NCBI GenBank assembly: GCA_023382435.1
Contig: JAHDVS010000008.1
Location: 12,272-76,271, forward strand
Direction of reading: 5' to 3'
Origin: Thermoleophilia bacterium
GTDB taxonomy: Bacteria; Actinomycetota; Thermoleophilia; Gaiellales; Gaiellaceae
DNA length: 64,000 bases
Shown: positions 1,532 to 33,571 of the stretch, piece by piece
How positions within the stretch are numbered: position 1 is the first letter of the stretch
Layout: every line of letters starts with the position of its first letter
Position numbers and translations under genes: made by a program
The notes under the pieces: generated by a model
What the model saw: the letters and a program-made list of their open reading frames with translations, nothing else
Database searches by the model: none
What the model was told of the DNA's origin: nothing

Positions 1532-1588
1532 GGGCGCATGATAGGGCTAGGCTTGCGCCTCGATGGCGAGCGGGGCGTGGGAGCGCGC

Positions 1589-16639: not shown

Positions 16640-16673
16640 CGCCGCGTATTCTGCCCCGGGTGACGCCGCCGTG

Positions 16674-16679
16674 TACGCT
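16674..16679 (+). promoter_or_regulatory. -10-like hexamer TACGCT, 7 nt upstream of the ATG (leaderless-transcript candidate)
   Basis: TAnnnT hexamer followed by a 7-nt spacer and ATG 16687; no Shine-Dalgarno in between. Confidence 0.3.
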
Positions 16680-16686
16680 GCCTGGC

Positions 16687-17964
16687 ATGACACGCTTCTG
16701 GCACCCCGTTGCGAACATGCACGCCGTCGAGCGCGACGGCGAGCTCGTCCTCGACCGCGCGGACGGTATCGAGGTGTGGGACGAGCAGGGTCGGCGCTAC
16801 CTCGACGCGACCGCGAGCCTGTGGTACTGCAACGTCGGCTACGGCCGGCAGGAGATCGTGGACGCGGTCGCCGCGCAGATGCGCAAGCTGCCCGCCTATT
16901 CGGCCTACGACGACCTCGCCACCCGCCCGACGATCGAGCTCGCGGAGCGGATCGCGCGGATCGCGCCGATGCCCGACGTCCGCGTCTTCTTCGCGAGTGG
17001 CGGCGCCGAGTCGATCGAGACGGCCGCGAAGCTCGCGCGCCGCTACTGGAGCCACGTCGGCCAGCCCGAGCGCAGGATCGTGATCTCGCGCGAGCGCGCC
17101 TACCACGGCATGGCGGCCTACGGGACGAGCCTCGCGGGCGCGGAGGTGTTCAAGGCCGGCCTCGGCACGCTCGTCGCCGACGCCGCCCAGGTGCCCTGGG
17201 ACTCGGCCGGCGCCCTGCGCGAGACGATCGGCCAGCTCGGCCCGGAGCGGGTCGCCGCCTTCGTGTGCGAGCCCGTGATCGGTGCCGGGGGCGCGCTCGC
17301 GCCACCGCCCGGGTACCTAGACGAGGTTCGCCAGATCTGCCGCGACGCCGATGTCTTCTTCATCGCGGACGAGGTGATCTGCGGCTACGGGCGCGTCGGC
17401 GACTGGTTCGCGTCGAGCCGCTTCGGCCTCGAGCCGGACATGGTCACGTTCGCGAAGGGGATCACGTCCGGCTACCTGCCGCTCGGCGGCCTGATCGTCG
17501 GGGCGAGGATCGCCGAGCCGTTCTGGAACGGCGAGGCCGGGTTGTTCCGCCACGGCTACACCTACTCGGGCCACGCGAGCGCGACCGCAGCCGCCCACCC
17601 GAACCTCGACATCGTCGAGCGGGAGGGCCTGCCGGCCCGCGCGCTCGAGCTCGAGCTCGAGCTGACCGAGGCGCTCGCGCCCCTGGCCGGCCACCCGCTC
17701 GTGACGGAGGTGCGCTCCGGCGTCGGCGTGATCGCGGCAGTCCAGCCCGACCCGGCGCTCGTCGCGGCCGACCCGACCCTGCCCGACCGGCTGCGGCTCG
17801 CGTGTCGCGCGAGCGGCGTGCTGACCCGGACGCTCGTCGGCGGCGGCCTCCAGGTCTCGCCGGCGCTCACGGTCACGCGGCCGCAGCTCGACGAGATCGC
17901 GGCGGGAATCGCCGCCGGACTCGACGCCGTCGCCGCGACCGTCCCCGCGGCCGCCGCCTCCTAG
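16687..17964 (+). CDS. class III PLP aminotransferase (omega-transaminase-like)
   Basis: Track ORF trimmed to MTRFWHPVANMH; FIADEV..GYGR and TFAKGITSGYLP (PLP lysine) motifs. Confidence 0.85.
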   Translation: MTRFWHPVANMHAVERDGELVLDRADGIEVWDEQGRRYLDATASLWYCNVGYGRQEIVDAVAAQMRKLPAYSAYDDLATRPTIELAERIARIAPMPDVRVFFASGGAESIETAAKLARRYWSHVGQPERRIVISRERAYHGMAAYGTSLAGAEVFKAGLGTLVADAAQVPWDSAGALRETIGQLGPERVAAFVCEPVIGAGGALAPPPGYLDEVRQICRDADVFFIADEVICGYGRVGDWFASSRFGLEPDMVTFAKGITSGYLPLGGLIVGARIAEPFWNGEAGLFRHGYTYSGHASATAAAHPNLDIVEREGLPARALELELELTEALAPLAGHPLVTEVRSGVGVIAAVQPDPALVAADPTLPDRLRLACRASGVLTRTLVGGGLQVSPALTVTRPQLDEIAAGIAAGLDAVAATVPAAAAS

Positions 17965-18782: not shown

Positions 18783-20966
18783 TCAACGCGATCCCTCGAT
18801 CCCCGCGCGCGGAAGCCAGCGAAGCCAATGGGGCAGGTACCAGTTCCAGCGGCCGAGCAGCCTCATCGAAGCGGGCACGAGCACCGAGCGGATCACCGTC
18901 GCGTCGAGGAAGAGCGCGACGGCGAGGCCGAAGCCCATCTGCTGGAAGATCACGAGCTCGCCGAGCGCGAAGCCGGAGAAGACGGCGACCATGATCAGCG
19001 CCGCACCGGTGATCAGGCGGGCCGTCGAGCCGATCCCGAACGCGACCGCCCCCGCGTTGTCGCCCGTCTCGTCGTAGCGCTCGCGGATCCGCGAGAGCAG
19101 GAACACGTGGTAGTCCATCGAGAGCCCGAACAGGACGGAGAAGAGAAACAGCGGCAGCCACGCCTCGACCGACTCGACCTGCTGGAAGCCGAGCAGGTCG
19201 GTGAGGTAGCCTTTCTGGAACACGAGTACGAGCAGCCCGTAGGCGGCGCCGACGGACAGCAGGTTGAGGGCGATCGCCTTCGCCGGGACGACGATCGAGC
19301 GGAACGCGACCGTGAGCAGCAGGAAGCTGAACGCGAGCACGAACGCGAACACGATCGGCCGGTAGCGGTCGGTGACGTCGAAGAAGTCGCTGTTCTTCGC
19401 GGTCACGCCGCCGACGAGGACCTCCGCGTCGACGCCCTCGAACGCTGCGGGGATCGCCTCGTCGCGAAGGGCCCGCACGACCTCGGCGGCCGCGTCGGCG
19501 TTCGGGTCGCCCGCAAGCGGGATCGAGACGAGCGTGAGGTCGCCCCCGTCGTTGGCCTCGACCACGGCCTCGCCGAAGGAAGGCTCACCGGCCAGCGCCG
19601 TCTCGAGCCGCTCGATCGCGGCCTCGACCTCGGCGGAGCCGGCGTCGCCGTCGACGACGACCTCGACGGGGGCGATCCGACCCGCCTGGAACTCGTGGTC
19701 GAGCACATCGAATGCCTGCCTGGAGGGCAGGTCGGGCGGAAGCGTGCTGACGCCGGCCGTGCCGGTCTGAAGCTGAAAGGCCGGCACCGTCGCCGCGAGC
19801 AGCACGCCGGCCGAGAGAAGCAGGCTGAGCACCGGTCGGCGCATTACCGCCCTGGCAATCGCCGCCCAGAAGCGCCCCTCGGCGCCGCCGGTGAGCCGCC
19901 GCTGCACGAACGGGAGCCGCAGCGCGTTGACGCGGTCGCCGAGCAGCGCCAGCACCGCCGGGAGCAGCGTCAGGACGACGACCACGGAGGCGATCCCGAC
20001 GAGGATCGCCCCGGCGGCGAGGCTGCGCATCACGGTCGTCGGCACGAGCAGCATTCCCAGTAGGGCGAGCACGAACGTCCCGCCCGAGAACAGGACCGCG
20101 CGGCTGGCGGTGGCGCCGACGACGCGGATCGCCGCCAGCTTCTCGTCGCCGCGCGCCCGCTCCTCGCGGAAGCGCGAGACGATGAAGAGCGAGTAGTCGA
20201 TCCCGAGCGCGAGCCCCATGCCGACGGACATGTTGACCACGAAGAAGGAGAGGGGCGTGGCCTGGCCGATCAGCGCAACGGCGCCCAACGCGACCGCGAT
20301 CGCGACGAGCGCGAGCAGTACGGGCACGAGCGCCGCGACGAGAGCGCCGAAGACGAGCACGAGGATCACGAGCGCGGCGACGAGGCCGTACACCTCGCCC
20401 GTCTTCAGGTCGTTCTGCGACACCCGCTCGAAGTCCTTACCGACGCTCGCGAGCCCGTTCTGGAGCACGTCGAAGCGCGGGTCGGCGCCGGCGGCGCGCG
20501 TGACGTCGAGGACGGCCCCGACGGCGGCGGCGGCCTCCTCGTAGTCGCCGGTCATGACGAGCGGGACAAGCGTCGTGTGCCGGTCTGCCGAGACGAGCGA
20601 CTCGTCCCCCGTGACGTAGTAGCTCGTGCCGCCACTGAGCACCTCCGGGCCGAGCGCGCGCAGGTCCTCGCCGAGCCGGGCGACGAACGCCGCGAACTCG
20701 GGGTTGTCCACGGTCAGCGTGTCCGACCGGACGATCACGACCTCGCGGATCGGGGTCTCGCCGCGCAGCCGCTCCTCGAGCAGCCGCTCGGCGCGGATCG
20801 ACTCCGGGTTGCCGGTGAGGTCGGCGTCGGTGGTGAGCGAGTCACCGAGGAAGCCTCCGACGAGCGCGAGCGCGCCGAGCAGCACGACCGCCCAGGCGGC
20901 GACGACCCGCCACGGGTGCCGGCTGCAGGAGCCTGCGAGCGCGGCGGGCGAGAGGACGAAGCGCAC
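18783..20966 (-). CDS. MMPL-family (RND superfamily) membrane transporter
   Basis: 727 aa; two-fold repeated TM bundle plus soluble-loop architecture; typical MMPL sequence (GIDYSLF.., MDYHVFLLSRIRE). Confidence 0.85.
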   Translation of the reverse strand: MRFVLSPAALAGSCSRHPWRVVAAWAVVLLGALALVGGFLGDSLTTDADLTGNPESIRAERLLEERLRGETPIREVVIVRSDTLTVDNPEFAAFVARLGEDLRALGPEVLSGGTSYYVTGDESLVSADRHTTLVPLVMTGDYEEAAAAVGAVLDVTRAAGADPRFDVLQNGLASVGKDFERVSQNDLKTGEVYGLVAALVILVLVFGALVAALVPVLLALVAIAVALGAVALIGQATPLSFFVVNMSVGMGLALGIDYSLFIVSRFREERARGDEKLAAIRVVGATASRAVLFSGGTFVLALLGMLLVPTTVMRSLAAGAILVGIASVVVVLTLLPAVLALLGDRVNALRLPFVQRRLTGGAEGRFWAAIARAVMRRPVLSLLLSAGVLLAATVPAFQLQTGTAGVSTLPPDLPSRQAFDVLDHEFQAGRIAPVEVVVDGDAGSAEVEAAIERLETALAGEPSFGEAVVEANDGGDLTLVSIPLAGDPNADAAAEVVRALRDEAIPAAFEGVDAEVLVGGVTAKNSDFFDVTDRYRPIVFAFVLAFSFLLLTVAFRSIVVPAKAIALNLLSVGAAYGLLVLVFQKGYLTDLLGFQQVESVEAWLPLFLFSVLFGLSMDYHVFLLSRIRERYDETGDNAGAVAFGIGSTARLITGAALIMVAVFSGFALGELVIFQQMGFGLAVALFLDATVIRSVLVPASMRLLGRWNWYLPHWLRWLPRAGIEGSR

Positions 20967-21024: not shown

Positions 21025-23190
21025 ATGACGTTCGACCGGAAACTGCTGGCCTGGATCGGCTGCGACGTTGACGTAGGGGCGGGTCATGACCCGCCCCTAC
21101 TAGACTCCGCCATCTCGCGCGATCCCCGCCACGACGTCCTGTTCGAGCCGGTCCGGATCGGGCCGAAGACGCTGCGCAATCGCTTCTACCAGGTGCCGCA
21201 TTGCACCGGGTTCGGGACGACGAAGCCCCGCTCGCAGGCCGCGCACCGCGCGGTCAAGGCGGAGGGTGGCTGGGCAGCCGTCTGCACCGAGTACGCGCCT
21301 GTGTCGGCCGACTCTGACGAGTCGCCGTACGTGTCGGCGCAGCTTCTCGACGACGACGACCTGGCGAACCTGACGCTCCTGACCCGGGCGGCGCACGAGC
21401 ACGGGGCGCTCGCCGGGATCGAGCTGACGCACGTCGGCGGACACGCCGGTGTGCGTGAGTCGCGCTGGCCTCCGATCGCCCCCTCCCAGCTCGCGAGCGA
21501 CTACCACTCCTTCACGGTGCCGAAGGCGATGGAGAGGACAGACATCCGCCGCGTCCAGGCGGACTGGGCGACCGCCGCGAGGCGCTCGCGGGAGGCCGGC
21601 TTCGACATCGTCTACGTCTACGGTGCCCACTCCTACCTACCGCTCCAGTTCCTCTCACCGTTCTACAACCAGCGCACGGACGAGTACGGCGGCTCGTTCG
21701 AGAACCGCGCCCGGTTCTGGCTCGAGACGATCGAGCTCGTGCGCGACGCCGTCGGCGCCGACTGCGCGATCGCCGTCCGCCATCAGCTCGACGGGCTCGG
21801 CCCGGCAGGCGTCGAGCTGCGAGAGGCGCTCGCGTTCGTCGAGCTCGCCGACCCGCTCGTCGACCTCTGGGACGTCAACGTCGGCTCGATCGCGGAGTGG
21901 GGCGGCGACTCGGGGCCGTCGCGCTTCTTCGCGGAGGGCTACCAGCTCGAGTGGACCCGCCACGTGCGCGACCGCACCGGCAAGCCGATCGTCGGTGTCG
22001 GGCGTTTCACGAGCCCGGATGCAATGGTCGAGGCGATCCGCTCGGGCGCGCTCGACCTGATCGGCGCGGCCCGCCCCTCGATCGCCGACCCGTTCCTGCC
22101 CCGCAAGCTCGAGCAGGGCCGCTACGGCGAGATCCGCGAGTGCATCGGCTGCAACGTCTGCATCTCGAAGTCGGAGTCGGGCAACCACATCGGCTGCACG
22201 CAGAACGCGACCGCAGGCGAGGAGCACCGCCGCGGCTGGCACCCCGAGCGTTTCGTGCCCGCCACGAACGCCGACCGGGACGTGCTCGTGGTGGGGGCGG
22301 GGCCCGCCGGGCTCGAGTGTGCGATCGTGCTTGCCAAGCGGGGCCTGCGCCGCGTGCATCTCGTCGAGGCGGAGGAGGAACCGGGCGGCGCGATGCGCTG
22401 GATCCCCCGGCTGCCCGGGCTCGGCGAGTGGGCGCGGGTGGTGAACTGGCGCCGCATCCAGCTCGACGGTCTGCGGAATATCGAGGTCCTGACCGGCCTT
22501 CGCCTCGATGCCCGGGCCGTGCGTGAGTACGGCGCCGAGCTCGTCGTGTGCGCGACGGGCGCGCGCTGGGCCGCTGACGGGCTGAGCGCGTTCGCGCACG
22601 AGCCGGTCCCGGGAGCCGACTCGTCCCTGCCGCACGTGCTCACGCCGGAGCAGGTGATGCTCGAGGGCAAGCGACCGCCCGGCGAGCACGTCGTCGTCTA
22701 CGACGCGGAGGGCTACTTCGTCGCGGCAGGGCTCGCCGAGCTGCTGGCGCTCGAGGGCTTCGCCGTCGAGCTCGTGACGCCGCTCGAGCAGGTGGCGCCG
22801 ATCTGCGACGAGACACTCGAGGGCTCACGCCTGCGCCGGCGACTGCACGAGGCCGGGGTCGGGATGCAGCGCGGCGTCACGATCGGCGCGATCGAGCCGG
22901 GCCTGGTCGCCTGCGCGACCGAGTTCGACCAGCCGCTCGAGCTCGCTGCCGACGGCGTCGTGCTCGTGACCCAGCGCCTCTCGAACGAGCAGCTCTACCT
23001 CGAGCTCGCGGCCGACCCGGCCGCGCTGCGGGCCGAGGGGGTCGAGGCCGCCTACCGGGCCGGCGACTGCGTCGCGCCGCGCATGATCGCGGACGCGGTC
23101 TTCGACGGCCACCGCCTCGCGCGCGAGATCGACTCCGAGAACCCGGCCGTGCCCCGCCCGTACCGGCGCGAGCGGCTGGTCGTCGGTTAG
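21025..23190 (+). CDS. trimethylamine/dimethylamine/histamine dehydrogenase-family FMN + [4Fe-4S] amine dehydrogenase
   Basis: RDPRHDVLFEPVRIGPKTLRNRFYQVPHCTG (6-S-cysteinyl-FMN Cys context), DIVYVYGAHSYLPLQFLSPFYNQRTDEYGGS, CIGCNVCIS..GC cluster motif, VVGAGPAGLECA ADP fold. Confidence 0.9.
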   Translation: MTFDRKLLAWIGCDVDVGAGHDPPLLDSAISRDPRHDVLFEPVRIGPKTLRNRFYQVPHCTGFGTTKPRSQAAHRAVKAEGGWAAVCTEYAPVSADSDESPYVSAQLLDDDDLANLTLLTRAAHEHGALAGIELTHVGGHAGVRESRWPPIAPSQLASDYHSFTVPKAMERTDIRRVQADWATAARRSREAGFDIVYVYGAHSYLPLQFLSPFYNQRTDEYGGSFENRARFWLETIELVRDAVGADCAIAVRHQLDGLGPAGVELREALAFVELADPLVDLWDVNVGSIAEWGGDSGPSRFFAEGYQLEWTRHVRDRTGKPIVGVGRFTSPDAMVEAIRSGALDLIGAARPSIADPFLPRKLEQGRYGEIRECIGCNVCISKSESGNHIGCTQNATAGEEHRRGWHPERFVPATNADRDVLVVGAGPAGLECAIVLAKRGLRRVHLVEAEEEPGGAMRWIPRLPGLGEWARVVNWRRIQLDGLRNIEVLTGLRLDARAVREYGAELVVCATGARWAADGLSAFAHEPVPGADSSLPHVLTPEQVMLEGKRPPGEHVVVYDAEGYFVAAGLAELLALEGFAVELVTPLEQVAPICDETLEGSRLRRRLHEAGVGMQRGVTIGAIEPGLVACATEFDQPLELAADGVVLVTQRLSNEQLYLELAADPAALRAEGVEAAYRAGDCVAPRMIADAVFDGHRLAREIDSENPAVPRPYRRERLVVG
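21073..21100. repeat. perfect 28-bp palindrome inside the 5' end of the amine dehydrogenase ORF
   Basis: GTAGGGGCGGGTCATGACCCGCCCCTAC equals its own reverse complement; encodes VGAGHDPPL, upstream of the first conserved residues. Confidence 0.9.
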
Positions 23191-23240: not shown

Positions 23241-23999
23241 ATGACGCTGCGAGTCGACCTCAACGGGGACATGGGCGAGTCGTACGGTCGCTGGACGCTC
23301 GGAGACGACGAGGCCCTGATGCCGCAGCTGACGTCCGCGAACATCGCGTGCGGCTTCCACGGCGGCGACCCTCACGTGATGCGCCGGACGGTTGCGCTCG
23401 CGCTCGCGCACGGTGTCGCCGTCGGGGCGCACGTCGGCCTTCCCGACCTGATCGGCTTCGGGCGGCGGCGCCTGGCCGTCTCCCCCGCCGAGCTTCGCGA
23501 CTACGTCCTCTACCAGGCCGGAGCCGTCAAGGCCTTCGCCGAGGCAGCCGGCGCAAGGCTCGAGCACGTCAAGCCGCACGGCGTCCTCTACGCAATGGCC
23601 CAGGAAGACGGCGAGCTGGCACGGGCGATCGCCGCTGCCGTGGCCGAGCTCGGTGGCGACGTCGCTCTTTTGCTCGCCGGCCGTACCGTCGCCGCTGCAG
23701 CGACTGAGGCCGGGGTGAGGTTCGTCCCCGAGAGCTACGTCGACCTCGACTACACGGGCGAAGGGAAGCTCGTGATCGAGCGCGTGAAGCAGCTGCGCGA
23801 CCCGAAGGAAACGGCCGCGCGGGCCGTTCGCCTGGTCACCGAGGGAAAGGTGCGGACGCTGGACGGGACCGATCTCGATCGCGAGGCGAGCTCGATCTGC
23901 GTGCATGGCGACGCCCCGAACGCACCCGCGATCGCCGCCGCGATCCGCCGCGCTCTCCAGGCGGCGGGGGTCGAGCTCGTCCCGCTCGCCGCCCTGTAG
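23241..23999 (+). CDS. LamB/YcsF-family protein (5-oxoprolinase subunit A homologue)
   Basis: VDLNGDMGESYG...ANIACGFHGGDP...VKPHGVLY motifs; TAGAAT -10-like box at 23223..23228. Confidence 0.85.
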   Translation: MTLRVDLNGDMGESYGRWTLGDDEALMPQLTSANIACGFHGGDPHVMRRTVALALAHGVAVGAHVGLPDLIGFGRRRLAVSPAELRDYVLYQAGAVKAFAEAAGARLEHVKPHGVLYAMAQEDGELARAIAAAVAELGGDVALLLAGRTVAAAATEAGVRFVPESYVDLDYTGEGKLVIERVKQLRDPKETAARAVRLVTEGKVRTLDGTDLDREASSICVHGDAPNAPAIAAAIRRALQAAGVELVPLAAL

Positions 24000-24024
24000 G
24001 CACCACCTGTCGGGCACGGATCGG

Positions 24025-25362
24025 TCAGTGGCCGAGCTTACTCTCGAGGAAGTCGACGTGGTAGTCGCCGGCGCGAAACAGCCCGTCGGAGAGCAGCCCG
24101 AGATGGAGCGGCACGGTCGTCTTCACGCCCTCGATCCGCAATTCCGAGAGCGCGCGCTCGCCGCGGGCCATCGCCTCTTCGCGCGTTCGGTCCCAGACGA
24201 TCAGCTTCGCGATCAGCGAATCGTAGAACGGCGGTATCCGGTAGCCCGCGAAGACGGCTGTGTCGACGCGCACTCCCGGTCCGCCCGGGAGCTCGAGTGC
24301 CGTGATCTCACCCGGCGAGGGCAGGAACCGGCGCTCGGGATCCTCGGCGTTGATCCGGAACTCGATCGCGGCGCCCCGCACCGCCACCTCGTCCTGCACG
24401 ACACCGAGCCGCTCGCCCGCCGCGACCCGGAGCTGCTCCTTGACGATGTCGACGCCGACGACCATCTCGGTGACCGGGTGCTCGACCTGGATGCGCGTGT
24501 TCATCTCGATGAAATGGAAGCTCCCGGCTCGGTCGAGGAGGAACTCGAGCGTCCCCGCTCCCGTGTATCCGACCGCCCGCGCCAGGCGCAGGGCGTCCGC
24601 CGCGATCGCCTCGCGAGCGGCCGAGTCGAGCACCGGCGAGGGGGCCTCCTCGAGGACCTTCTGCCGCCGACGCTGAAGCGAGCACTCGCGCTCGTAGAGA
24701 TGAATCATGTTGCCGTGCTCGTCTCCGAGCACCTGAACCTCGACGTGGCGGGCGTCGGGAAGGAGCCTCTCCAGGTAGAAGGAGCCGTCACCGAACGCGG
24801 CCTCGGCCTCTCTGGCCGCGTCGACGACGACCGAGCGCAGCTCGTCGGGCTCCGAGGCGGTCCTGATGCCGCGTCCGCCACCACCGGCGACGGCCTTGAC
24901 CATGACCGGATAGCCGATCGCGGCCGCGCTCTCGAGCGCCTCGTCGACCGATGCCAGCTCGTCCGTGCCGGGCACGGTCGGAACGCCCGCGTCCCGCGCG
25001 CGGCGACGGGCCTTCGCCTTGTCGCCCATCTCCTCGATCAGCTCCGGCGCCGGCCCGACGAAGACGAGGCCGGCCGCGCGGCAAGCCGCTGCGAAGCGCG
25101 CGTTCTCGGCCAGGAAGCCGTAGCCCGGATGGACGGCGTCGGCGCCCGCTTCCCTGGCCGCGCGGAGCACGGCGCCGCCGTCGAGGTAGCTCTCCCGGGC
25201 GTGGGGCGGGCCGATGCAGACCGCCTCGTCGGCTACGCGCACGTGCAGCGCTTGCTCGTCGGCCGTCGAGTACACGGCCACGGAGCCCAGGCCGAGCTCC
25301 CGGCAGGCCCGGATCACTCGCAGAGCGATCTCGCCCCGGTTGGCGACGAGAACCTTGCGCAC
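24025..25362 (-). CDS. biotin carboxylase subunit
   Basis: C-terminal 445 aa of track ORF 24025..26100 (VRKVLVANRGEIALRVIRAC...); GGGGRGI loop and EMNTRIQVEHPVTE; GTG 25362 preceded by GAGGA. Confidence 0.9.
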   Translation of the reverse strand: MRKVLVANRGEIALRVIRACRELGLGSVAVYSTADEQALHVRVADEAVCIGPPHARESYLDGGAVLRAAREAGADAVHPGYGFLAENARFAAACRAAGLVFVGPAPELIEEMGDKAKARRRARDAGVPTVPGTDELASVDEALESAAAIGYPVMVKAVAGGGGRGIRTASEPDELRSVVVDAAREAEAAFGDGSFYLERLLPDARHVEVQVLGDEHGNMIHLYERECSLQRRRQKVLEEAPSPVLDSAAREAIAADALRLARAVGYTGAGTLEFLLDRAGSFHFIEMNTRIQVEHPVTEMVVGVDIVKEQLRVAAGERLGVVQDEVAVRGAAIEFRINAEDPERRFLPSPGEITALELPGGPGVRVDTAVFAGYRIPPFYDSLIAKLIVWDRTREEAMARGERALSELRIEGVKTTVPLHLGLLSDGLFRAGDYHVDFLESKLGH

Positions 25363-25379
25363 CGACCGGTCCTCGCCCT

Positions 25380-25634
25380 TCAGTCGGAGAGCACGATGAG
25401 GTTCTGACCGGCCTCGATCAGGTCCTCGTTCTCGACGAGGAAGCGCTCCACGGTTCCGGCCTCCTCGCTCGTGATCTCGTGGAAGTTCTTCATGATCTCC
25501 ACCAGGCCAACGACGTCTCCGGGCTCGACGCGATCGCCTTCGCTGACGAAGGGGTCGGCCTGGGGGTTGGCGCGCCGGTAGAACGTTCCCGGCAACGGCG
25601 ACTTGACCGCCCTGTTTGCCATCTCGCGCCTCAT
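25380..25634 (-). CDS. biotinyl-domain carrier protein (BCCP-like)
   Basis: 80-84 aa with GDVVGLVEIMKNFHEI (biotinyl-lysine MK motif); start at 25634 or 25622. Confidence 0.8.
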   Translation of the reverse strand: MRREMANRAVKSPLPGTFYRRANPQADPFVSEGDRVEPGDVVGLVEIMKNFHEITSEEAGTVERFLVENEDLIEAGQNLIVLSD

Positions 25635-25655
25635 CTCCTCCGTCGGGTTGCCGTC

Positions 25656-26651
25656 TCAGACCTGTTCGAGGCTCGTCCCGGTCAGGCGCGCGTCGAGCTC
25701 CCGATCGAGCTCCACGGCCTCCTCGATCGTGACCTCGCGAAAACGCACCGTGTCGCCGACCGGGCGAAGCTGGCCGAGCTTCCAGAACGCCGCGTGTACC
25801 ACCGTGGCGGCGCAGAGGAAGCCGCCCGCGGTCGGCCCGTCCGGGCCGAGGATCACCGGCAGGTCGCCGTTCACGTTGACGGCACCGACCGGGTAGCTGT
25901 TGTCGAGGATGTTCGAGGGGTGACCGCCGGCAATGCCCCCGCTCGAGCGCGCCCACTGGAACAGCTGCGGCTCGAGCCGGACACCGGTGCGGTTGGAGTT
26001 GCGATCCACCCTCCAGGTCCGGCCGAAGAACGTCGCCATGTCCTGCTCCGTGAGGAAGTCGGGTGACGCCTGCGGTCCCCGCAGCGCCTCGATCTCCCAC
26101 TCGCGCGCGTACGGCGGCCGCGCGCTCTCCCGGAAGCGCCAGCCGCCGCCGGAGGCCGCGTCGCCGCTCTCCGTCCCCAGGGGAAACCGGTCGCCCGTCC
26201 GGAGAGCGCGACCATCGAGGCCGCCGAGAGCCCCCATCGTGTAGGTCGAGCGGGAGCCGAGGACGGACGGCACGTCAATCCCGCCCGCGACGGCGACGTA
26301 CATGCGAAAGCCGGGCCCCTCGGAGATGCCGATCCGAAGCTCGGAGCCGGCCTCGAGTCGCCGGCCTTCCCACAGGGGGAGCGCCTCGCCGTCCACGGAG
26401 ACCGCGACCGGCGCGCCGCATACGGCGACGGTGGCGCCGGTTTCGAAGCGAAGGGCGACGTTGCCGAGCGTCACCTCCAGCGTCGCCGCTGACGGCTGGT
26501 TTCCGACCACGAGGTTGGCGGCCCGGTGGGCGAAGTGGTCCATCGCGCCGGCGGGAAAGAACCCCTGGGCGCGCATCCCAGGCCGCCCGGGGTAGTCCTG
26601 AACGGTCGTCTGGATTCCACCCTCGAGCACCTCGACGTTTCCGGCGACCAT
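25656..26651 (-). CDS. carboxyltransferase A/B-domain protein (AHS2 / KipA / PxpC homologue)
   Basis: Track ORF trimmed to MVAGNVEVLEGGIQTTVQDYPGR...; NRTGVRL and GDLPVILGPDGPTAGG motifs. Confidence 0.85.
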   Translation of the reverse strand: MVAGNVEVLEGGIQTTVQDYPGRPGMRAQGFFPAGAMDHFAHRAANLVVGNQPSAATLEVTLGNVALRFETGATVAVCGAPVAVSVDGEALPLWEGRRLEAGSELRIGISEGPGFRMYVAVAGGIDVPSVLGSRSTYTMGALGGLDGRALRTGDRFPLGTESGDAASGGGWRFRESARPPYAREWEIEALRGPQASPDFLTEQDMATFFGRTWRVDRNSNRTGVRLEPQLFQWARSSGGIAGGHPSNILDNSYPVGAVNVNGDLPVILGPDGPTAGGFLCAATVVHAAFWKLGQLRPVGDTVRFREVTIEEAVELDRELDARLTGTSLEQV

Positions 26652-26661
26652 CGAGCTCACC

Positions 26662-27636
26662 TCAGGGCACGGGAGCCGCGGTCGCCGCCTGCTCGCGGAG
26701 TCGCCGCCGCTTCCCCGCCTCGTCTGCCACCTGCGGCAGCCATTCCAGATAGGCACCGACGTCCAGCGTTCCCTCTTCCACGCTGTAGGGGTAGCGATCC
26801 GCATGCACGTCATCCCAGAGCTCGAGGAGCTCCTGCTCCTCGACCCGGTGGAATCTGATGCGATCACCTGCCCGCAGGAGCAGCGGGCTCTCGCGAAACG
26901 CGGCGTTGCGAGCAGCGAGGTCGTAGATCGGCAGCGTGCGCCCGATCAGCTGGTAGCCGCCGGCCGACTCGACGGGGTAGATCGCCCAGCACGGGCCGCC
27001 GAGCCCGAGCGCTCCCTCCGGAGTCCAGGTGCGCGTCGGGTTGTATTTCGGCACGACAACCGCGTCGCGCGGGTCGAGCGGAAACATGAAGGGCAATCCG
27101 GGGAAGAACCCGATGAAGGCTGTCCACTGCTCGGTACCGAGCACGGCCTCGTAAAGCTCTTCGCGGTCGGCGAGCCCGTTGTAGCGGGCGATGTAGTCGA
27201 CGTTCGTGCCGCCCTCGCAGTTCGGCGCGTCCTTGCGGATCGAGTGGATGTAGCGCTCGACCGCCTGGCGTGTCTGCGAGTCGTCGAACGCCACCGGCAG
27301 GCGGACGAGACGACTCGGAAGAGTGATCTCTCGCTCCGCCTCGAGGCTCTCGTGCACCGCGTGCAGGTGATCGAGAAGCTCGTCAACGGAGAGCTGCAGG
27401 GGGTCATAGCTGACCAGGATCGACCGAAAGCCCGGGGCCGTCTCCACAAGCCCCTCGAGCGGCCACGTGCCGAGGGCGTCGTTGACGGCCAGGACGAAGA
27501 AGTTCAGCGTCAGGTCGAACTCCATCTCGCCGTACTCGACGAGAACGGCCCGGTCGCCCGCGTAGCGGTACGCAATGCCCGGCTTACCCTCTCGTGCCGG
27601 CTGCCGCTCGATCACAGCCGATGCCGTCGCGCCCAT
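26662..27636 (-). CDS. carboxyltransferase C/D-domain protein (AHS1 / KipI / PxpB homologue), long form
   Basis: 324 aa from ATG 27636 preceded by GGAAGGAGGG; YRYAGDRAVLVEYGE.., ETAPGFRSILVSYDP, GFFPGLPFM motifs. Confidence 0.8.
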   Translation of the reverse strand: MGATASAVIERQPAREGKPGIAYRYAGDRAVLVEYGEMEFDLTLNFFVLAVNDALGTWPLEGLVETAPGFRSILVSYDPLQLSVDELLDHLHAVHESLEAEREITLPSRLVRLPVAFDDSQTRQAVERYIHSIRKDAPNCEGGTNVDYIARYNGLADREELYEAVLGTEQWTAFIGFFPGLPFMFPLDPRDAVVVPKYNPTRTWTPEGALGLGGPCWAIYPVESAGGYQLIGRTLPIYDLAARNAAFRESPLLLRAGDRIRFHRVEEQELLELWDDVHADRYPYSVEEGTLDVGAYLEWLPQVADEAGKRRRLREQAATAAPVP

Positions 27637-27823
27637 CGCGGTCCACCCTCCTTCCGGGATGCCCGACAATACCGGTGCCCGGTGGCCTGCGTGCGGGGCG
27701 CGATTCCGACACGACGTCCAGACTCGGTGCCCGCTTGCCGGGGAGCAGCGGGACGCGGGACAGCAAGACGCCGCGGGATCGGCGACGATTGACCCGTCAA
27801 CGGGCACCGGTGAGGAGGCCGCC

Positions 27824-29386
27824 ATGGCTGAGAGCGAGACGCTGACGTTGCGGAGGATCCCCCGCCTCGAGTTGAACGAGCTGGCCCGGGAGTGGGGCTT
27901 CGCGATCGCGGCCGAGGAGGAGAGCGCGTACCTGCGGCTCGTCGACGGCGTCCTCTCCGTCCTCGACGAGCTGGACCGGCACCCGGTCCCCGTCGAGAAC
28001 GTCGAGGCGGTGCGGGACCCGGGGCGCCCGCCCGGGCCGGGGGAGGACCCCTGCAACGCCGTCGTGCGCTGGTGCCGGGTCGAGTCGACGCACGAGGGCG
28101 TCCTGGGCGGGATGCGGATCGCGGTCAAGGACTCGGTGGCCGTCGCCGGTGTCCCGATGACGTGCGGGTCACGAATCCTCACGGGGTTCGTCCCCGAGCG
28201 GGATGCCGTCGTCACGGAGCGGATCCTCGAGGCAGGCGGCGTGATCGCCGCGATCACGAACATGGACGACCTCGCCTTTTCCGGCGGCGGGGACACGAGC
28301 TGCTACGGCCCGACCCTCTGCCCGTTCGACCTGGCGCGCACCGCCGGCGGCTCGTCGGGCGGATCCGCCGCCGCCCTCTGGTACGAGGGCCTCGACGCCG
28401 CGATCGGCAGCGACCAGGGCGGGTCGATCCGGGTGCCCGCGGCGTGGTGCGGGGTGATCGGCCTCAAGCCCACCCACGGCCTCGTCCCGTACACCGGGAT
28501 CGCGGGGATCGACCGGACCTTCGATCATGCCGGGCCCCTGGGCCGGACCGCCGAGAGCGTCGCGCGCCTGCTCCAGGCCGTTACGAGCGGGGGCAGCGCC
28601 GCCCCGCAGCGGGGAGACACTGCGGTCGCCGACTACCTCAGCGCGGTCGCCGGGGCACCCGACGACCTCCGTGGTATCCGGCTCGGGCTCGTCGCGGAGA
28701 GCCTCGGCGAGGGTGTCGGCGCCACCGCCGAGGTGGCCGAGGCGACGCTGGAGACGCTCGAGCGCCTGCGCGAGCTCGGCGCCGACATCCGGGAGGTATC
28801 GCTTCCGGAGCATCTCCAGGCGGGCGGGATCGCCTTCGCGGGCTTCGTCGAGGGGATGACCGCGCTCATGGCCGGAGGCGGCAACGGCTACCACTGGTTC
28901 GGCCGCTATGCCCCCGATCTGGCGCTCGCGCTGAGACGGGGGCTGACCGCTCGCGCCGGCGAGCTGCCCGCCTCGGTCAAGACTGCCCTGCTGGTCGGCA
29001 CTCACCTGCGCCGCTCGTACCTCGGCGCGGTCTACGCGCAGGCCCAGAACCTGCGACCGTGGCTTCGGAGCGCGTACGACCGGGCCCTCGAGGGTCTCGA
29101 CGCCCTGCTTCTCCCGGCGACGCCCGGCCTTCCCCACCGAGACGACCCAGCGCTCTCGCTCTCCGACCGTGTCCTGCGCGGATGGGGCGTCCTCGCCAAC
29201 ACGTACCCGACCGACATGACGGGTCATCCCGCCCTCACCATCCCCGTGGCGGAGACCGGCGGCCTGCCCGTGGGCCTGATGCTCGTGGGGCGGCCGCTCG
29301 CGGAGGCCCGGCTGCTTCAGGTCGCGCGCACGGTCGAGGGCTCCCTCGGCTGGCGGCCCGACCCCTCGCTCGCCGCTGCCGCCTAG
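27824..29386 (+). CDS. amidase-signature family amidase
   Basis: Track ORF trimmed to ATG 27824 (GAGGAGG upstream); IAVKDS catalytic Lys context and GGSSGGSAAA signature. Confidence 0.85.
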   Translation: MAESETLTLRRIPRLELNELAREWGFAIAAEEESAYLRLVDGVLSVLDELDRHPVPVENVEAVRDPGRPPGPGEDPCNAVVRWCRVESTHEGVLGGMRIAVKDSVAVAGVPMTCGSRILTGFVPERDAVVTERILEAGGVIAAITNMDDLAFSGGGDTSCYGPTLCPFDLARTAGGSSGGSAAALWYEGLDAAIGSDQGGSIRVPAAWCGVIGLKPTHGLVPYTGIAGIDRTFDHAGPLGRTAESVARLLQAVTSGGSAAPQRGDTAVADYLSAVAGAPDDLRGIRLGLVAESLGEGVGATAEVAEATLETLERLRELGADIREVSLPEHLQAGGIAFAGFVEGMTALMAGGGNGYHWFGRYAPDLALALRRGLTARAGELPASVKTALLVGTHLRRSYLGAVYAQAQNLRPWLRSAYDRALEGLDALLLPATPGLPHRDDPALSLSDRVLRGWGVLANTYPTDMTGHPALTIPVAETGGLPVGLMLVGRPLAEARLLQVARTVEGSLGWRPDPSLAAAA

Positions 29387-29528: not shown

Positions 29529-29735
29529 TCAGGTCCTCGGCTCGCCCTTCAGCTTCGGCAATACGTAGTCCCGGTAGAGCTCCACGCAGGCGGGACTGCA
29601 AAACCGGTGTTCCTCGCCCTCGACCTCGGCAACCCAGAGACGCTTGGGGACGACCTGGCCGCAGCAGTCGCACGGTGTCACGGCGGTCTCCCAGACCTGC
29701 GTCGTGATCGGCAGCCACCGGCCACTCACGGGCAC
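29529..29735 (-). CDS. 68-aa zinc-ribbon (TRASH/FCS-like) protein coupled to hyuB
   Basis: C-x-C-C-G ... RFCSPAC (Cys pairs about 21 residues apart); GTG start 29735 overlaps the hyuB 3' end by 10 nt. Confidence 0.55.
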   Translation of the reverse strand: MPVSGRWLPITTQVWETAVTPCDCCGQVVPKRLWVAEVEGEEHRFCSPACVELYRDYVLPKLKGEPRT

Positions 29736-31447
29736 TCCCAGCCGTACAGGTCGCGCGCCCGCTCCGGACTGACAAAGCCCTCGTAGACGTCGCGCGCGAC
29801 ACGCTCCCGGTCGCGCGCACGCGGGTCGCCATAGCCGCCGCCGCCGGGCGAGTCGATCAGCACCTCGTCGCCCTCCTCGAGCAGGATGTTCGTGAACTTC
29901 GACGGCGACACGGTCCCGAACGCCTCCGAGAAGGTGCGAAACTCCGCATCTCCCTTTCGCCTGACCATGATCGCCGCGCGACCACCCGTGCCGCCGCCCG
30001 CGAGGCCCCAGGCCCCGAAGCCCGGCTTGGTCCGGTCGAAGAGCGCGTTGACCGTCACCTCGGTGCTCGGCTCGACCCGGAGGATCCGGCGCGTGCCGAG
30101 ACCGCCGCGCATCCGCCCCGGCCCGCCCGAGTCCGGGATCAGCGAGTACTCGATCGTCCGCAGCGGGTAGCGCGTCTCGAAGATCTCGACCGGCGTGTTC
30201 CGGCAGTTGCCGTTCTTGACGATGATCGCGTCGTTGCCGTCGTCGTAGTCCTTAGCACCCCAGCCGCCGCCCTCGAGGTGGTAGTTCGCGTAGTAGTCGC
30301 CCGTCCTCGGATGGAAGCCGCCGAAGAGGAAGTTGCACGCCGTCCCCCCCTCGGCCGCCGCGACCCGGCCGGGAAGCGCCTGCGCGAGCGCGGCAATGAC
30401 CATGTCGGCGAGCTTGGGATGCGTCTCGGTGTTGCCGCCGACGGACGGACCCGGGTAGACGACGTTCACGGCGGAGCCGGGCGGCGCGATGATCGAGATC
30501 GGCCGGTAGACACCGGAGTTCTTCGGGATGCTCTGGTCGGTCAGATGGAAGATCGCGTTGTACGTCGCGCCGGCGGTCACGCCGTAGGTGGCGTTGATCG
30601 GGCCCCGCACCTGGGGGTCGGTCCCGGTCCAGTCGACGATCAGCCGATCGCCGTCGACTGTTACCTCGACGTGGAAGGTGACCGGGCGCTCGACGACGCC
30701 GTCGTCCTCCATTCGGGCGGTGAACGCATACCGTCCGTCGGGGATCGCCCTGATCTCGGTGCGCATCCAGCGCTCCGAGTAGTCCATCAGCTCCTCCGCC
30801 GCCTCCTCGACGAGATCGCGGCCGTACCGTTCGAGGAGCAGCTGGACGCTCCGCTCGGCGACCCGCAACGAGCCGATCTGGGCGTTGAGGTCACCCCAGG
30901 TATTCCGGGGGGTCCGGTGGTTGGCCATGATCAGCCGCCAGAGGTCCATGTTGGGCCGGTCGCGGCTGACGATCTTGACCGGCGGGATCCGAAGCCCCTC
31001 CTGGAAGACCTCGGTTGCGTCAGCGGCGAAGCTCCCGACGGCCTTGCCCCCGATCTCGGCCAGGTGACCGACGTTGGCGACGAAACCGAAGAGCTCGCCG
31101 TCGAAGAAGACGGGACGGATCACCGAGTGCTCCGGGATGTGAGCGCCACCTCGATAGGGGTCGTTGTGGAGGACGACGTCGCCCTCCTCGAACGAGTCGA
31201 CGCCAAGCTCCTCGACCGTCCAGCGAACGATGAAGAGGCTGGCCGCGATCTGGGCGGGGCAGAACTCCGCCTGGCCGATCATGTTGCCGTGCCGGTCGAA
31301 GAGGACACACGAGAAGTCGAGACCCTCGTTGAAGATCGGCGAGAAGGCTGTCCTCATCATGGTGATGCCCATCTCGCGACAGATGTTTACGAAGGCGTTG
31401 TTCACGATGGCGAGCGTTACTGGATCGATGCCGCCGCCCACCCTCAC
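29726..31447 (-). CDS. hyuB: hydantoinase B / oxoprolinase-family subunit
   Basis: 573 aa; typical HyuB sequence (DPVTLAIVNNAF..., NDPYRGGAHIPE); GTGA overlap with hyuA. Confidence 0.9.
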   Translation of the reverse strand: MRVGGGIDPVTLAIVNNAFVNICREMGITMMRTAFSPIFNEGLDFSCVLFDRHGNMIGQAEFCPAQIAASLFIVRWTVEELGVDSFEEGDVVLHNDPYRGGAHIPEHSVIRPVFFDGELFGFVANVGHLAEIGGKAVGSFAADATEVFQEGLRIPPVKIVSRDRPNMDLWRLIMANHRTPRNTWGDLNAQIGSLRVAERSVQLLLERYGRDLVEEAAEELMDYSERWMRTEIRAIPDGRYAFTARMEDDGVVERPVTFHVEVTVDGDRLIVDWTGTDPQVRGPINATYGVTAGATYNAIFHLTDQSIPKNSGVYRPISIIAPPGSAVNVVYPGPSVGGNTETHPKLADMVIAALAQALPGRVAAAEGGTACNFLFGGFHPRTGDYYANYHLEGGGWGAKDYDDGNDAIIVKNGNCRNTPVEIFETRYPLRTIEYSLIPDSGGPGRMRGGLGTRRILRVEPSTEVTVNALFDRTKPGFGAWGLAGGGTGGRAAIMVRRKGDAEFRTFSEAFGTVSPSKFTNILLEEGDEVLIDSPGGGGYGDPRARDRERVARDVYEGFVSPERARDLYGWECP

Positions 31448-33483
31448 CCCTCCTCACGGACGAGCTCGAGCACGCCGCGGCGGCCGCTCTCGAGCCGCCA
31501 GGCGGGGGGGACGACGATCGTCGAGTCCATCTCCTCGACGATCGCCGGGCCGCCGCGCACGCTGCCAAGCTCGAGCGAATCGCGCCGCACCACGGGCGTG
31601 GCGACGAAGCCGTGCTCCGGAAACCAGACCTCGCGCGACTCGTCGCGGGCGGCGGGCCCGCCCCCCTGAACGAGCTCCGGCAGACGCCTGTCCTCGCCGA
31701 CGACCACGACCTGGAGACGAACGAGCTCGATCGGGATTCCGTCCAGCCGGTAGCCGTAGAAACTCTCGTAGAGGCGCGCGAACTGCTCGTAGACACCCGG
31801 CAGGTCGTCGTCAGCGAGCTCACCCCCCGGCACCGTCACCTCCGTCTCGTAGTTCTGACCCTGGTAGCGCATGGCGATCGATCGGCGCACCTCGTGGGAG
31901 GCGACTCCGCCTGCCTGAGCCTCGAAGTCGGCAACGGATCGGGACTCGAGCTCCGTGAAGAGCCGGCTCACCTCGGCCGCAGTCGCCCGCACGTCGGTGA
32001 GGTAGACGCTCTTGACGGCATCGACCCGCACCTGGGCCGCGAGCGCGCCGAAGGCCGAGGCGAGACCGGGATTGGCCGGCACGATCACTCGACCGATCCC
32101 GATCGCAGCGGCGATCTCGGCCGCATGCGTCGGCCCGGCGCCGCCCATGGCGACGATGGCGAACTCGCGCGGATCGATGCCCTGCTCGACCGTCACGATC
32201 CGGATCGCGTTGGCCATGTTCTCGTTTGCCACCCGTACCATCGAGGCGGCGACGTCGACCGCGTCGCGGCCGAGCTTCGCGGCGAGCCGCCCCAGCGCCG
32301 CGCGGCTGAGCGAAGCGTCGAGGGCGAGCCGTCCGCCGAGGAAGAAGTCGGGGTTCAGCCGGCCGAGGGCGAGGTTCGCGTCGGTCAGCGTCGTCTCCTC
32401 GCCGCCGCGGCCGTAGCACGCGGGGCCGGGGTCGGCCCCCGCGCTGCCCGGCCCGACCTGGAGGAAGCCGCCGGAGTCGACCCAGCCGATCGAACCACCG
32501 CCGGCGCCGATCGTCTTCGTCGACACCGACGGAACCGAGACGGGAAAGCCGTACTCGATTTCGAAGTCCGAGGAGTAGAGCGGCTCGCCGCCGACGATCA
32601 GACAGACATCGCAGCTCGTCCCGCCCATATCGACGACGATCCCCTTTTCCGTTCCCGCAAGCCGCGCGAAATGCGCGCCGCCGATGGCGCCCCCGGCGAT
32701 TCCGGACAGCAGGAGGTGCGCCGGCCGCTCCCGCGCCTCGGCGGCGAGGGCGTGCCCGCCGTTCGACTTCAGAAGCGACGGACGGCTCGAGATCCCCTGC
32801 GAGACGAGCGCGTCGCCGAGCCCGGACACGTACTCGTCGAGGAGAGGCTTCAGGTAGGCGTCGACGATGGCCGTCGTGCCCCGCTCGTACTCACGCCAGA
32901 TCGGCGCCACTTCGTGGGAGAGGGACACCGGCAGGCCGGTCCGCTCCTCCAGGAACGTGCGCGTGGCCAGCTCGTGCTCGGGGTCGAGGTACGAGAAGAG
33001 GAAGCAGACGGCGATCGCGAGGCGATCGCCGTCTGCCCGGGACTCGACGCTCTCGAGAACGCGTTCGAGCTCCCGGGTAGCGAGCGGCACGAGCTCCCGC
33101 CCCTCCTCGTCCAAGCGCTCGTCGACCCCGATGCAGTCTGGCCGGTGGACGAGCGGCGTCGGCTTGCGCCAGCGAAAGTCGTAGTGGTACTTCCGGGAGA
33201 TCCGCTGGATGAATGGGACGTCCTCGAAGCCCTTCGTCGTCAAATAGAGAACACGGGCGCCCGTCCGCGTGAGGACGGCGTTGATTCCGATCGTCGTACC
33301 GACGACGACGATCGAGATGCGCTCGGGATCGAGACCCGCCGCCTCGAGGGCCGCAGCCACAGCGGAGACCGGGTCCTTCGGGTTCGACGGGACCTTGGCG
33401 ACGTGCCAGCGGCCCGCCTCCTCGTCGACGGCTACGAGGTCGGTGAACGTCCCGCCCGTATCGATCCCGACCCGAATGCCCAT
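31444..33483 (-). CDS. hyuA: hydantoinase A / oxoprolinase-family ATPase subunit
   Basis: Track ORF trimmed to MGIRVGIDTGGTFTDLVAV; ASKHA-type DMGGTSCDV motif. Confidence 0.9.
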   Translation of the reverse strand: MGIRVGIDTGGTFTDLVAVDEEAGRWHVAKVPSNPKDPVSAVAAALEAAGLDPERISIVVVGTTIGINAVLTRTGARVLYLTTKGFEDVPFIQRISRKYHYDFRWRKPTPLVHRPDCIGVDERLDEEGRELVPLATRELERVLESVESRADGDRLAIAVCFLFSYLDPEHELATRTFLEERTGLPVSLSHEVAPIWREYERGTTAIVDAYLKPLLDEYVSGLGDALVSQGISSRPSLLKSNGGHALAAEARERPAHLLLSGIAGGAIGGAHFARLAGTEKGIVVDMGGTSCDVCLIVGGEPLYSSDFEIEYGFPVSVPSVSTKTIGAGGGSIGWVDSGGFLQVGPGSAGADPGPACYGRGGEETTLTDANLALGRLNPDFFLGGRLALDASLSRAALGRLAAKLGRDAVDVAASMVRVANENMANAIRIVTVEQGIDPREFAIVAMGGAGPTHAAEIAAAIGIGRVIVPANPGLASAFGALAAQVRVDAVKSVYLTDVRATAAEVSRLFTELESRSVADFEAQAGGVASHEVRRSIAMRYQGQNYETEVTVPGGELADDDLPGVYEQFARLYESFYGYRLDGIPIELVRLQVVVVGEDRRLPELVQGGGPAARDESREVWFPEHGFVATPVVRRDSLELGSVRGGPAIVEEMDSTIVVPPAWRLESGRRGVLELVREEG

Positions 33484-33571
33484 CGAGGTCCCGCGCTCGA
33501 CTCTATCCGGCGCGACGGGGAGGCGTAGGATCGAGCACCGCTGCCCACGCCCGACCCTGATGAGGTGAGCG

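Follow-up and report, generated by a model that had tools for sequence, protein, structure and literature searches.

One carboxyltransferase (CT) fold is common to the fungal lam system, to urea carboxylase and to the 5-oxoprolinase PxpABC, and only for urea carboxylase has its role been settled. In urea carboxylase/urea amidolyase (EC 6.3.4.6; Kluyveromyces lactis structures 3VA7 and 5I8I), an amide is carboxylated and then hydrolyzed. The PxpABC sets of Escherichia coli (YbgJKL), Bacillus subtilis (KipI/KipA/YcsF) and Corynebacterium glutamicum, as well as Pseudomonas putida PP_2920-2, bring three protein families together at one locus for ATP-dependent lactam opening with PxpA as the hydrolase; PxpA is held to be probably a metal-dependent lactamase and PxpBC the ATP-consuming part (PMC8453981). 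The PxpABC paralogs of P. putida are lactam hydrolases, one for 5-oxoproline and one for butyrolactam. As described, canonical sets have no genes of their own for a biotin carboxylase (BC) or biotin carboxyl carrier protein (BCCP). In Aspergillus nidulans, lamA and lamB are AmdR-controlled genes of lactam catabolism, the latter having given the LamB/YcsF family its name (PMC8016842; PMC3412718). Here we analyze a five-gene module at positions 23241–27636 of a 64,000-nucleotide stretch (hereafter the window) from a Thermoleophilia bacterium of the family Gaiellaceae (GenBank assembly GCA_023382435.1, contig JAHDVS010000008.1, positions 12,272–76,271 of the forward strand), which combines a PxpA homolog with the domains of urea carboxylase on four separate polypeptides.

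Genes in this 72% GC window were called from third-position GC and homology. Those of the module are:

23241–23999, plus strand: PxpA/LamB_YcsF hydrolase, 252 aa (Pfam LamB_YcsF, 297.5 bits)
24025–25362, minus strand: BC, 445 aa, GTG start (Biotin_carb_N, CPSase_L_D2 and Biotin_carb_C matched)
25380–25634, minus strand: BCCP, 84 aa (Pfam Biotin_lipoyl, 58 bits), EIMK motif with biotinyl-Lys49
25656–26651, minus strand: PxpC-like carboxyltransferase half (CT_A_B), 331 aa (Pfam CT_A_B, 288 bits)
26662–27636, minus strand: PxpB-like carboxyltransferase half (CT_C_D), 324 aa (Pfam CT_C_D, 149.9 bits)

The four minus-strand genes form one tight operon, with gaps of 10, 21 and 17 nt in the order CT_C_D, CT_A_B, BCCP, BC, and the convergent stop codons of PxpA and BC are 25 nt apart. 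All five genes were found where an initial annotation, made from the sequence alone, had placed them. Its description of a full urea-carboxylase domain complement as four separate proteins plus PxpA was borne out by searches with hidden Markov models for CT_C_D, CT_A_B, LamB_YcsF, Biotin_lipoyl and the BC domains, each of which was matched. The module thus has the four domains of urea carboxylase (BC, the A–D parts of CT, and BCCP), its fold and its C-terminal transferase segment. The layout, however, is not the single chain of ~1200 residues, BC-CT_A_B-CT_C_D-BCCP, whose domain order the fused urea carboxylases keep, and the module further differs from them in a deleted aspartate, in its PxpA partner and in its clade. 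With canonical PxpABC it shares the three protein families at one locus, but it adds BC and BCCP genes, and its PxpB-like protein has 324 residues where canonical PxpB has ~220 and no C-terminal segment. We lean towards the view that the five genes specify one multi-subunit hydrolase of a small lactam or cyclic amide, dependent on biotin, ATP and bicarbonate.

The transferase halves and the urea site

By sequence comparison, both transferase halves appear much closer to the urea carboxylase of K. lactis than to PxpB and PxpC. The PxpB-like protein scores 276.2 bits over residues 6–314 with the urea carboxylase model TIGR02712, as opposed to 71.3 bits with the PxpB model TIGR00370 (cut-off 145.55), and the PxpC-like protein scores 362.7 bits with TIGR02712, as opposed to 168.8 bits with the PxpC equivalog model NF045499 (cut-off 500). 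Compared with proteins of known structure, the PxpB-like half gave 168 bits to K. lactis 3va7/5i8i and 61 bits to E. coli YbgJ, and the PxpC-like half 225 bits to K. lactis 3va7 and 148 bits to E. coli YbgK. An AlphaFold2 model of the PxpB-like protein (predicted local distance difference test score, pLDDT, 91.9) was superposed by Foldseek on 5I8I/3VA7 with a query TM-score (TMq) of 0.83 over 321 columns, compared with 0.54 for YbgJ. Since the halves are of the urea-carboxylase type in both sequence and fold, an active site that uses carboxybiotin would be expected.

The initial annotation had also remarked that the PxpB-like protein exceeds E. coli PxpB in length, which is so (YbgJ has 218 residues in the PDB), and had taken the surplus for an extra C-terminal tail, which it is not. 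Residues 17–305 of the 324 align to residues 1427–1714 of K. lactis urea amidolyase, the C-terminal segment being homologous to residues ~1650–1714 of that protein; in the model, the C-terminal part forms a strand and a long helix (residues 285–320), the helix itself taking up residues 293–320. Because the alignment reaches residue 1714, the stretch is the ordinary C-terminal part of the CT domain of urea carboxylase, and a novel appendage is ruled out.

The motif around the urea site was compared across the K. lactis sequence and 91 diverse homologs spanning nearly the whole query, drawn from a library of 1.8 billion proteins. At this position, GLGD(V)(Y/F)LG is read in K. lactis and in almost every member of its clade, whereas the window protein reads FIG-FFPG, and the one-residue deletion falls exactly at K. 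lactis Asp1584, which we take to be the urea-contacting residue. The likely general base of the K. lactis enzyme, Lys1605 (PMC5770610), is retained as K197 in the motif PKYNP and is invariant in 23 homologs, among which Tyr1628, retained as Y220, is nearly invariant.

The enzymes that would process a carboxylated urea or guanidine were searched for in the window genome, which is 96% complete: no protein reached the cut-off of the allophanate hydrolase model TIGR02713, and none matched DUF1989/CgdAB (PF09347). The amidase encoded beside the module (27824–29386) can be ruled out as an allophanate hydrolase, at 122 bits against a TIGR02713 cut-off of 511; it scores 471.6 bits with NF005565 (cut-off 545) and is possibly an accessory gene of the context. 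A plain urea or guanidine carboxylase was therefore rejected, on the loss of the Asp, the lack of partner enzymes and the position of the transferase in the tree described below, and the set, as judged from its sequences, is something other than a urea carboxylase, as the initial annotation had maintained. Its own argument from redundancy fared less well. Of the complete urease operon that it saw at the left edge, only the gene for the gamma subunit (ureA, 1211–1546, minus strand) and the N-terminal part of that for the alpha subunit (ureC, 559–906, minus strand) could be confirmed in the window, the ureC frame (723 aa) being too long to end inside it. The genome does have a urease, but this says little about redundancy for urea; the real evidence is the deleted Asp and the absent allophanate hydrolase.

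Partner genes, lineage and distribution

The state of the GLGD motif appears to go with the choice of partner. Of the fused urea carboxylases with the Asp, eight were sampled in Actinomycetota; each is followed downstream by an amidase gene and none has PxpA within 8–10 kb, whereas three of the five fused Asp-less relatives that were looked up adjoin a divergent LamB_YcsF gene. From this pairing we derive a rule, based on the sequences sampled, whereby absence of the GLGD Asp would predict a PxpA/LamB partner and its presence an allophanate hydrolase partner.

The contigs that carry the three LamB-adjoined Asp-less proteins are eukaryotic and look fungal (their neighbors include Fungal_trans, GATA, Spo7, ATG14 and TFIID), and the divergent arrangement of the pairs is that of the A. 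nidulans lam genes. The motif of the fused Asp-less proteins, VG-FFVGTP, resembles IG-FFPGLP of the window, so that an FF(V/P)G motif, along with the conserved Lys and Tyr, is common to the window and the fungal-looking pairs. LamA with LamB, and likewise the window module, would thus combine an Asp-less biotin enzyme of the urea-carboxylase type with a LamB/YcsF hydrolase, the difference being that LamA is one eukaryotic BC-CT-BCCP polypeptide of ~1230 residues and the window has four proteins in a different order. By this analogy, the fungal lamA/lamB lactam-utilization pair appears to be the closest analog of the module, and that the module is its split bacterial counterpart seems to us, on balance, probable. 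No solution of LamA biochemistry was found in the literature searched.

A tree of the CT_C_D region (a quick search, with the canonical PxpB of two same-family genomes as root) groups the window protein with stand-alone proteins of ~320 residues, in a clade that a second stand-alone clade adjoins. All full-length fused proteins, and with them the urea carboxylase of K. lactis, belong to a 72-row clade (Shimodaira–Hasegawa-like approximate likelihood ratio test, SH-aLRT, 99) from which both stand-alone clades are excluded, so that the window protein falls outside the clade of this characterized enzyme. The fused Asp-less clade nests inside the fused group and not with the window clade. In view of the tree position outside the fused clade and the different gene order, the module is an independent and probably pre-fusion lineage rather than a urea carboxylase that has fallen apart. 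The PxpAs of modules with a long PxpB, that of the window included, likewise group apart from the PxpAs of canonical pxpABC sets (SH-aLRT 91).

The module is widespread, and the window holds one instance of it, not a unique locus. The 324-residue form of the PxpB-like protein is abundant in metagenomes, with 71–79% identity among the 120 best clusters. We compared 28 genome loci, 27 from Thermoleophilia and unclassified Actinomycetota metagenome-assembled genomes (MAGs) and one from a Bacillota MAG. Their usual layout is PxpA-PxpB-PxpC-BCCP-BC on one strand; the first three genes share a strand in about 21 of the 28, followed by BCCP and, where a full-length match was found, by BC, and PxpA is the first gene of the operon in most. 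A convergent PxpA as in the window recurs at loci L011, L017, L024 and L031, and the nearest relatives of the window PxpA are those of L011 and L017. Diverged modules, with 33–41% identity in the PxpB-like protein, keep the gene content in other orders (L037, L043, L035, where no BCCP was matched, and five genomes of the actinobacterial family f22). Among these, the order PxpB-PxpC-PxpA-BCCP-BC was seen in one metagenome contig and one Thermoleophilia genome, and an order of this type, but with no BCCP match, in a Bacillota MAG. In f22, the module type is present in 20 of the 33 sampled genomes, BC is divergent from PxpB-PxpC-PxpA-BCCP in the four complete loci of the five fetched, and the PxpB-like protein of the module is the only PxpB-type match, except in genome G375.

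Two described bacteria have the same gene content in other orders. The megaplasmid of Thermomicrobium roseum DSM 5159 carries BCCP-CT_CD-CT_AB-PxpA-BioY (TRD_RS12635–12650 for the module genes) with accC (TRD_RS12685) 8 kb upstream; its PxpB-like protein is 52% identical to that of the window over the full length, and the labels given by the Prokaryotic Genome Annotation Pipeline are ‘carboxyltransferase domain-containing’, ‘biotin-dependent carboxyltransferase family’ and ‘5-oxoprolinase subunit PxpA’. Pseudomonas aeruginosa PA0492–PA0496, which we know by description and not by sequence, includes a ‘biotin-requiring enzyme’ (PA0493) and a biotin carboxylase 55% identical to AccC (PA0494), the function of both being stated as unknown. 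Thus, the neighborhood check proposed in the initial annotation showed the five genes traveling together in Thermoleophilia, f22, the Bacillota MAG and T. roseum, and PxpA is genetically locked to the module, not an accidental neighbor. Within the class, any CT_C_D gene occurs in only 14 of 151 genomes, and a co-occurrence comparison found both the module and canonical pxpABC to be rare. The module is annotated inconsistently, as urea carboxylase (the label that the Joint Genome Institute, JGI, gives to homologs), allophanate hydrolase, acetyl-CoA carboxylase or 5-oxoprolinase.

Five further Actinomycetota loci (L052, L053, L059, L063 and L068, in genomes G162, G190, G159, G334 and G366) have a short, canonical-looking PxpB/PxpC with an adjoining BC, and at L052 and L053 a small carrier is present as well; where a PxpB match was found, the short PxpB is 27–30% identical to the window protein. 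The adjoining BC of such short-type loci, and the carrier that two of them also have, show that linkage to biotin genes in the Pxp family extends beyond the long type that resembles urea carboxylase.

A proposed biotin-dependent ring opening and its alternatives

The four-step reaction that we propose builds on a BC and carrier that would supply the ATP-driven step and on a transferase of the carboxybiotin-using type. First, BC would use ATP and bicarbonate to form carboxybiotin on Lys49 of the 84-residue carrier. Second, the PxpC-like/PxpB-like heterodimer, with its general-base Lys kept and the urea-site Asp absent, would carboxylate the substrate at its ring nitrogen or at its lactim oxygen; for a bicarbonate-dependent caprolactamase, a carboxy-lactim has been suggested as the intermediate (PMC8453981). 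Third, PxpA, as the LamB/YcsF hydrolase, would open the activated ring. Fourth, the resulting N-carboxy amino acid would shed CO2 spontaneously. The net reaction would be lactam + ATP + H2O to omega-amino acid + ADP + Pi, with CO2 in a catalytic role, and so would follow the logic of urea amidolyase, in which an amide is carboxylated before it is hydrolyzed. Complex formation, the order of carboxylation before hydrolysis and the class of substrate are what we infer here. We hold more tentatively, as a possibility short of an even chance, that biotin serves only to activate the lactam transiently for hydrolysis and leaves no carboxylated product, in which case the module would be a biotin-dependent lactamase, a kind of enzyme that biochemistry has not yet described.

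That the module uses biotin is suggested by its dedicated BC and BCCP. The BC passes the cut-offs of NF006367 (670 bits, cut-off 597) and of the accC model TIGR00514 (639 bits, cut-off 626.5), and the carrier passes that of NF005457/PRK07051 (116.4 bits, cut-off 87) but not that of the AccB model TIGR00531 (76.5 bits, cut-off 115.2). A fatty-acid role as the acetyl-CoA carboxylase of the cell is unlikely for the two proteins, since they always travel with the PxpB/C-like genes; the genome has five BC genes, the other four lying in open frames of 558–1174 aa, a length consistent with multi-domain subunits. A precedent for carrier binding comes from MSMEG_0435-0436, a short-type pair of the PxpC/PxpB families (46 and 97 bits against the proteins of the window) and without BC or BCCP of its own, the structure of which (PDB 9YX5) holds the biotin of the AccA3 carrier ‘positioned to participate in a carboxylation reaction’ (PMC13012033). 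In view of this structure, even short members of the Pxp family engage carboxybiotin carriers. The Acinetobacter baumannii ‘MumC urea carboxylase’ operon, also considered as a precedent, was not used; no separate carrier or BC is described for it, and it looks canonical and Pxp-type.

Several points weigh against the proposal. To begin with, canonical PxpBC is reported to hydrolyze ATP without biotin (PMC8453981), and the Pxp family therefore has no strict need of carboxybiotin. No biochemical characterization of any split module was found in the literature searched, in keeping with the statement in the initial annotation that the substrate is not established. The PxpA of the window stands outside the operon and convergent to it, 50 nt behind a flavoprotein gene, and the flanks of the module loci hold no conserved transporter or regulator that would point to a substrate. 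The trees are quick searches, and the SH-aLRT of 91 for the PxpA split is not decisive. A role of Asp1584 in urea binding was reportedly described by Fan et al. in 2012, and LamA (UniProt P38095) is presumably a urea-carboxylase homolog, as the contig evidence also suggests.

An alternative that we judge unlikely, yet worth serious attention, keeps the same mechanism and makes the module the organism’s own 5-oxoprolinase, a biotin-dependent stand-in for canonical PxpABC with the task of clearing 5-oxoproline that forms spontaneously. PxpA, the PxpB-like and the PxpC-like protein are each encoded by a single gene in the genome, and hence there is no canonical PxpBC, and the f22 genomes other than G375 repeat this pattern for PxpB. 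Its PxpA passes the NCBIfam subfamily model NF003814 (307 bits, cut-off 226), although all PxpA equivalog models remain under their cut-offs, and a variable neighborhood with no dedicated transporter or regulator would fit metabolite repair. However, the sparse occurrence of CT_C_D genes in the class marks the module as accessory rather than housekeeping there, and its transferase halves fail the PxpB and PxpC equivalog models by a wide margin. Moreover, lamA/lamB, the closest genetically studied analog, serves 2-pyrrolidinone; the HyuAB pairs found near many modules (see below) could themselves be 5-oxoprolinases; and no pyroglutamyl peptidase gene is conserved beside the module, nor was any linkage to one seen among its flanks.

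It is improbable, in our estimate, that the module is a true net carboxylase with a stable carboxylated product, PxpA acting before or after on another bond, for instance by a ring opening that exposes an amide. The transferase is of the carboxylating type with its general base kept, and the fold is used in other carboxyl chemistry, as a GLGD-type pair linked to the sodium-pump subunit OAD_beta at locus L039 indicates. Yet no conserved gene beside the module would handle a carboxylated product, the conserved partner is a hydrolase, and the PxpABC and LamAB systems yield ring-opened amino acids.

More doubtful still is a split urea or guanidine carboxylase whose allophanate would be hydrolyzed by the neighboring amidase. 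The full domain complement, the best model and PDB matches, the amidase gene divergent from pxpB and the JGI labels all speak for it. On the other side stand the deleted GLGD Asp, the place outside the fused clade, the other gene order, the failure of the amidase as an allophanate hydrolase, the lack of that enzyme and of CgdAB in the genome, the urease, and the true urea carboxylases, which show no PxpA linkage. As for the least credible alternative, in which the PxpB/PxpC-like pair is no enzyme but a regulator that sequesters biotinylated carriers, MSMEG_0435-0436 does bind BCCP biotin and lower propionyl-CoA carboxylase activity, with a published reading that is regulatory (PMC13012033; compare KipI/KipA acting on a kinase), but a regulator has no need of its own BC, carrier and hydrolase, all kept together across phyla, nor of an invariant catalytic Lys.

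Neighboring genes and the substrate

For the biotin-dependent lactam hydrolase that we favor, 2-pyrrolidinone-like lactams or 5-oxoproline are the candidate substrates. The initial annotation had pointed to an amide, ureide or lactam, of which a lactam or cyclic amide remains the best guess, and had argued from the amidase gene, across a divergent region whose length of 187 bp is as it stated, and from the hydantoinase pair. The surrounding genes are:

21025–23190, plus strand: flavoprotein, 721 aa (Oxidored_FMN and Pyr_redox_2)
27637–27823, no strand: 187-bp spacer that separates pxpB from the divergent amidase gene, presumed promoter region
27824–29386, plus strand: amidase-signature amidase, 520 aa (Pfam Amidase, 296.7 bits)
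29726–31447, minus strand: HyuB (Hydantoinase_B, 598.8 bits)
31444–33636, minus strand: HyuA (Hydantoinase_A, 296.8 bits)

As a clue to the substrate, conserved neighbors were of little use, since neither clustering of flank open reading frames nor a count of Pfam families in 78 flank proteins showed anything shared other than HyuAB and biotin-synthesis genes. HyuAB pairs stand beside the module at 15 of 31 loci. The best NCBIfam models of the window HyuB and HyuA are caprolactamase beta (347 bits) and alpha (475 bits), with cut-offs of 1000 each, and the pair appears from these matches to be a second, biotin-independent and ATP-dependent system of the lactamase/hydantoinase type; two different ATP-dependent ring-opening systems are thus often neighbors. 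Among the biotin-synthesis genes, bioB adjoins the module in seven loci (L009, L014, L015, L017, L027, L031 and L034), with bioA and bioF in some, and a BioY gene (L078:11822–12427) follows PxpA in T. roseum.

The remaining neighbors of the window are seldom repeated elsewhere. Among the 28 related loci, only L011, L017 and L033 have an amidase gene close to the module, and the flavoprotein gene, which is probably co-transcribed with the PxpA gene that starts 50 nt 3' of it, accompanies PxpA in none. The promoter scan found no sigma-70-like consensus in the 187-bp divergent region, as is usual at 72% GC, and promoter and terminator scans gave nothing informative in such GC-rich DNA. An inverted repeat, TTGAC-CC-GTCAA, lies at 27789–27800, 24 nt upstream of the amidase start; its arms are 5 bp and it may be due to chance.

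The local context, namely HyuAB, the amidase, the flavoprotein by PxpA and the genes of T. roseum, hints at an exogenous lactam. In T. roseum (NC_011961.1, L078:997–8677), three subunits of the xanthine-dehydrogenase family, a TorT-like binding protein and an ABC transporter are encoded between accC and the module, and these would suggest a fit with uptake of an N-heterocycle and its hydroxylation to a lactam. The window also encodes a class-III omega-aminotransferase (16630–17964, plus strand; PRK07480-like, 384 bits, cut-off 510), which could accept the omega-amino acid that lactam opening sets free; it is 5 kb away, behind an MMPL gene (18783–20966). As a BioA it is ruled out, at 268 bits against a cut-off of 405.

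A different use of the fold may be seen at L039:4000–8093 (ERZ27247707 k141_1317988), where a stand-alone GLGD-type CT_C_D/CT_A_B pair (P0129) occurs with OAD_beta, a 69-residue biotinyl protein and BioY. The pair adjoins PucR and AllH genes, and no biotin carboxylase is present there. The set looks like a biotin-dependent, ion-pumping decarboxylase built on a urea-carboxylase transferase, perhaps with allophanate or a ureide as substrate.

If lactam hydrolysis by the module does prove to be driven by carboxybiotin, many annotations would need correction, a new type of enzyme would become available for lactam and nylon-monomer biocatalysis, and the carrier binding of MSMEG_0435-0436 would receive a catalytic explanation. 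The relation between the GLGD Asp and the partner gene offers a simple and testable classifier. If biotin indeed serves only to activate the lactam transiently, short PxpB/PxpC pairs without their own carrier, such as MSMEG_0435-0436, might borrow the carboxybiotin of acyl-CoA carboxylases for catalysis and not only regulate them. It would further mean that urea carboxylase was derived from an older, PxpA-coupled and lactam-opening carboxyltransferase, through gain of the GLGD Asp and the exchange of PxpA for allophanate hydrolase.

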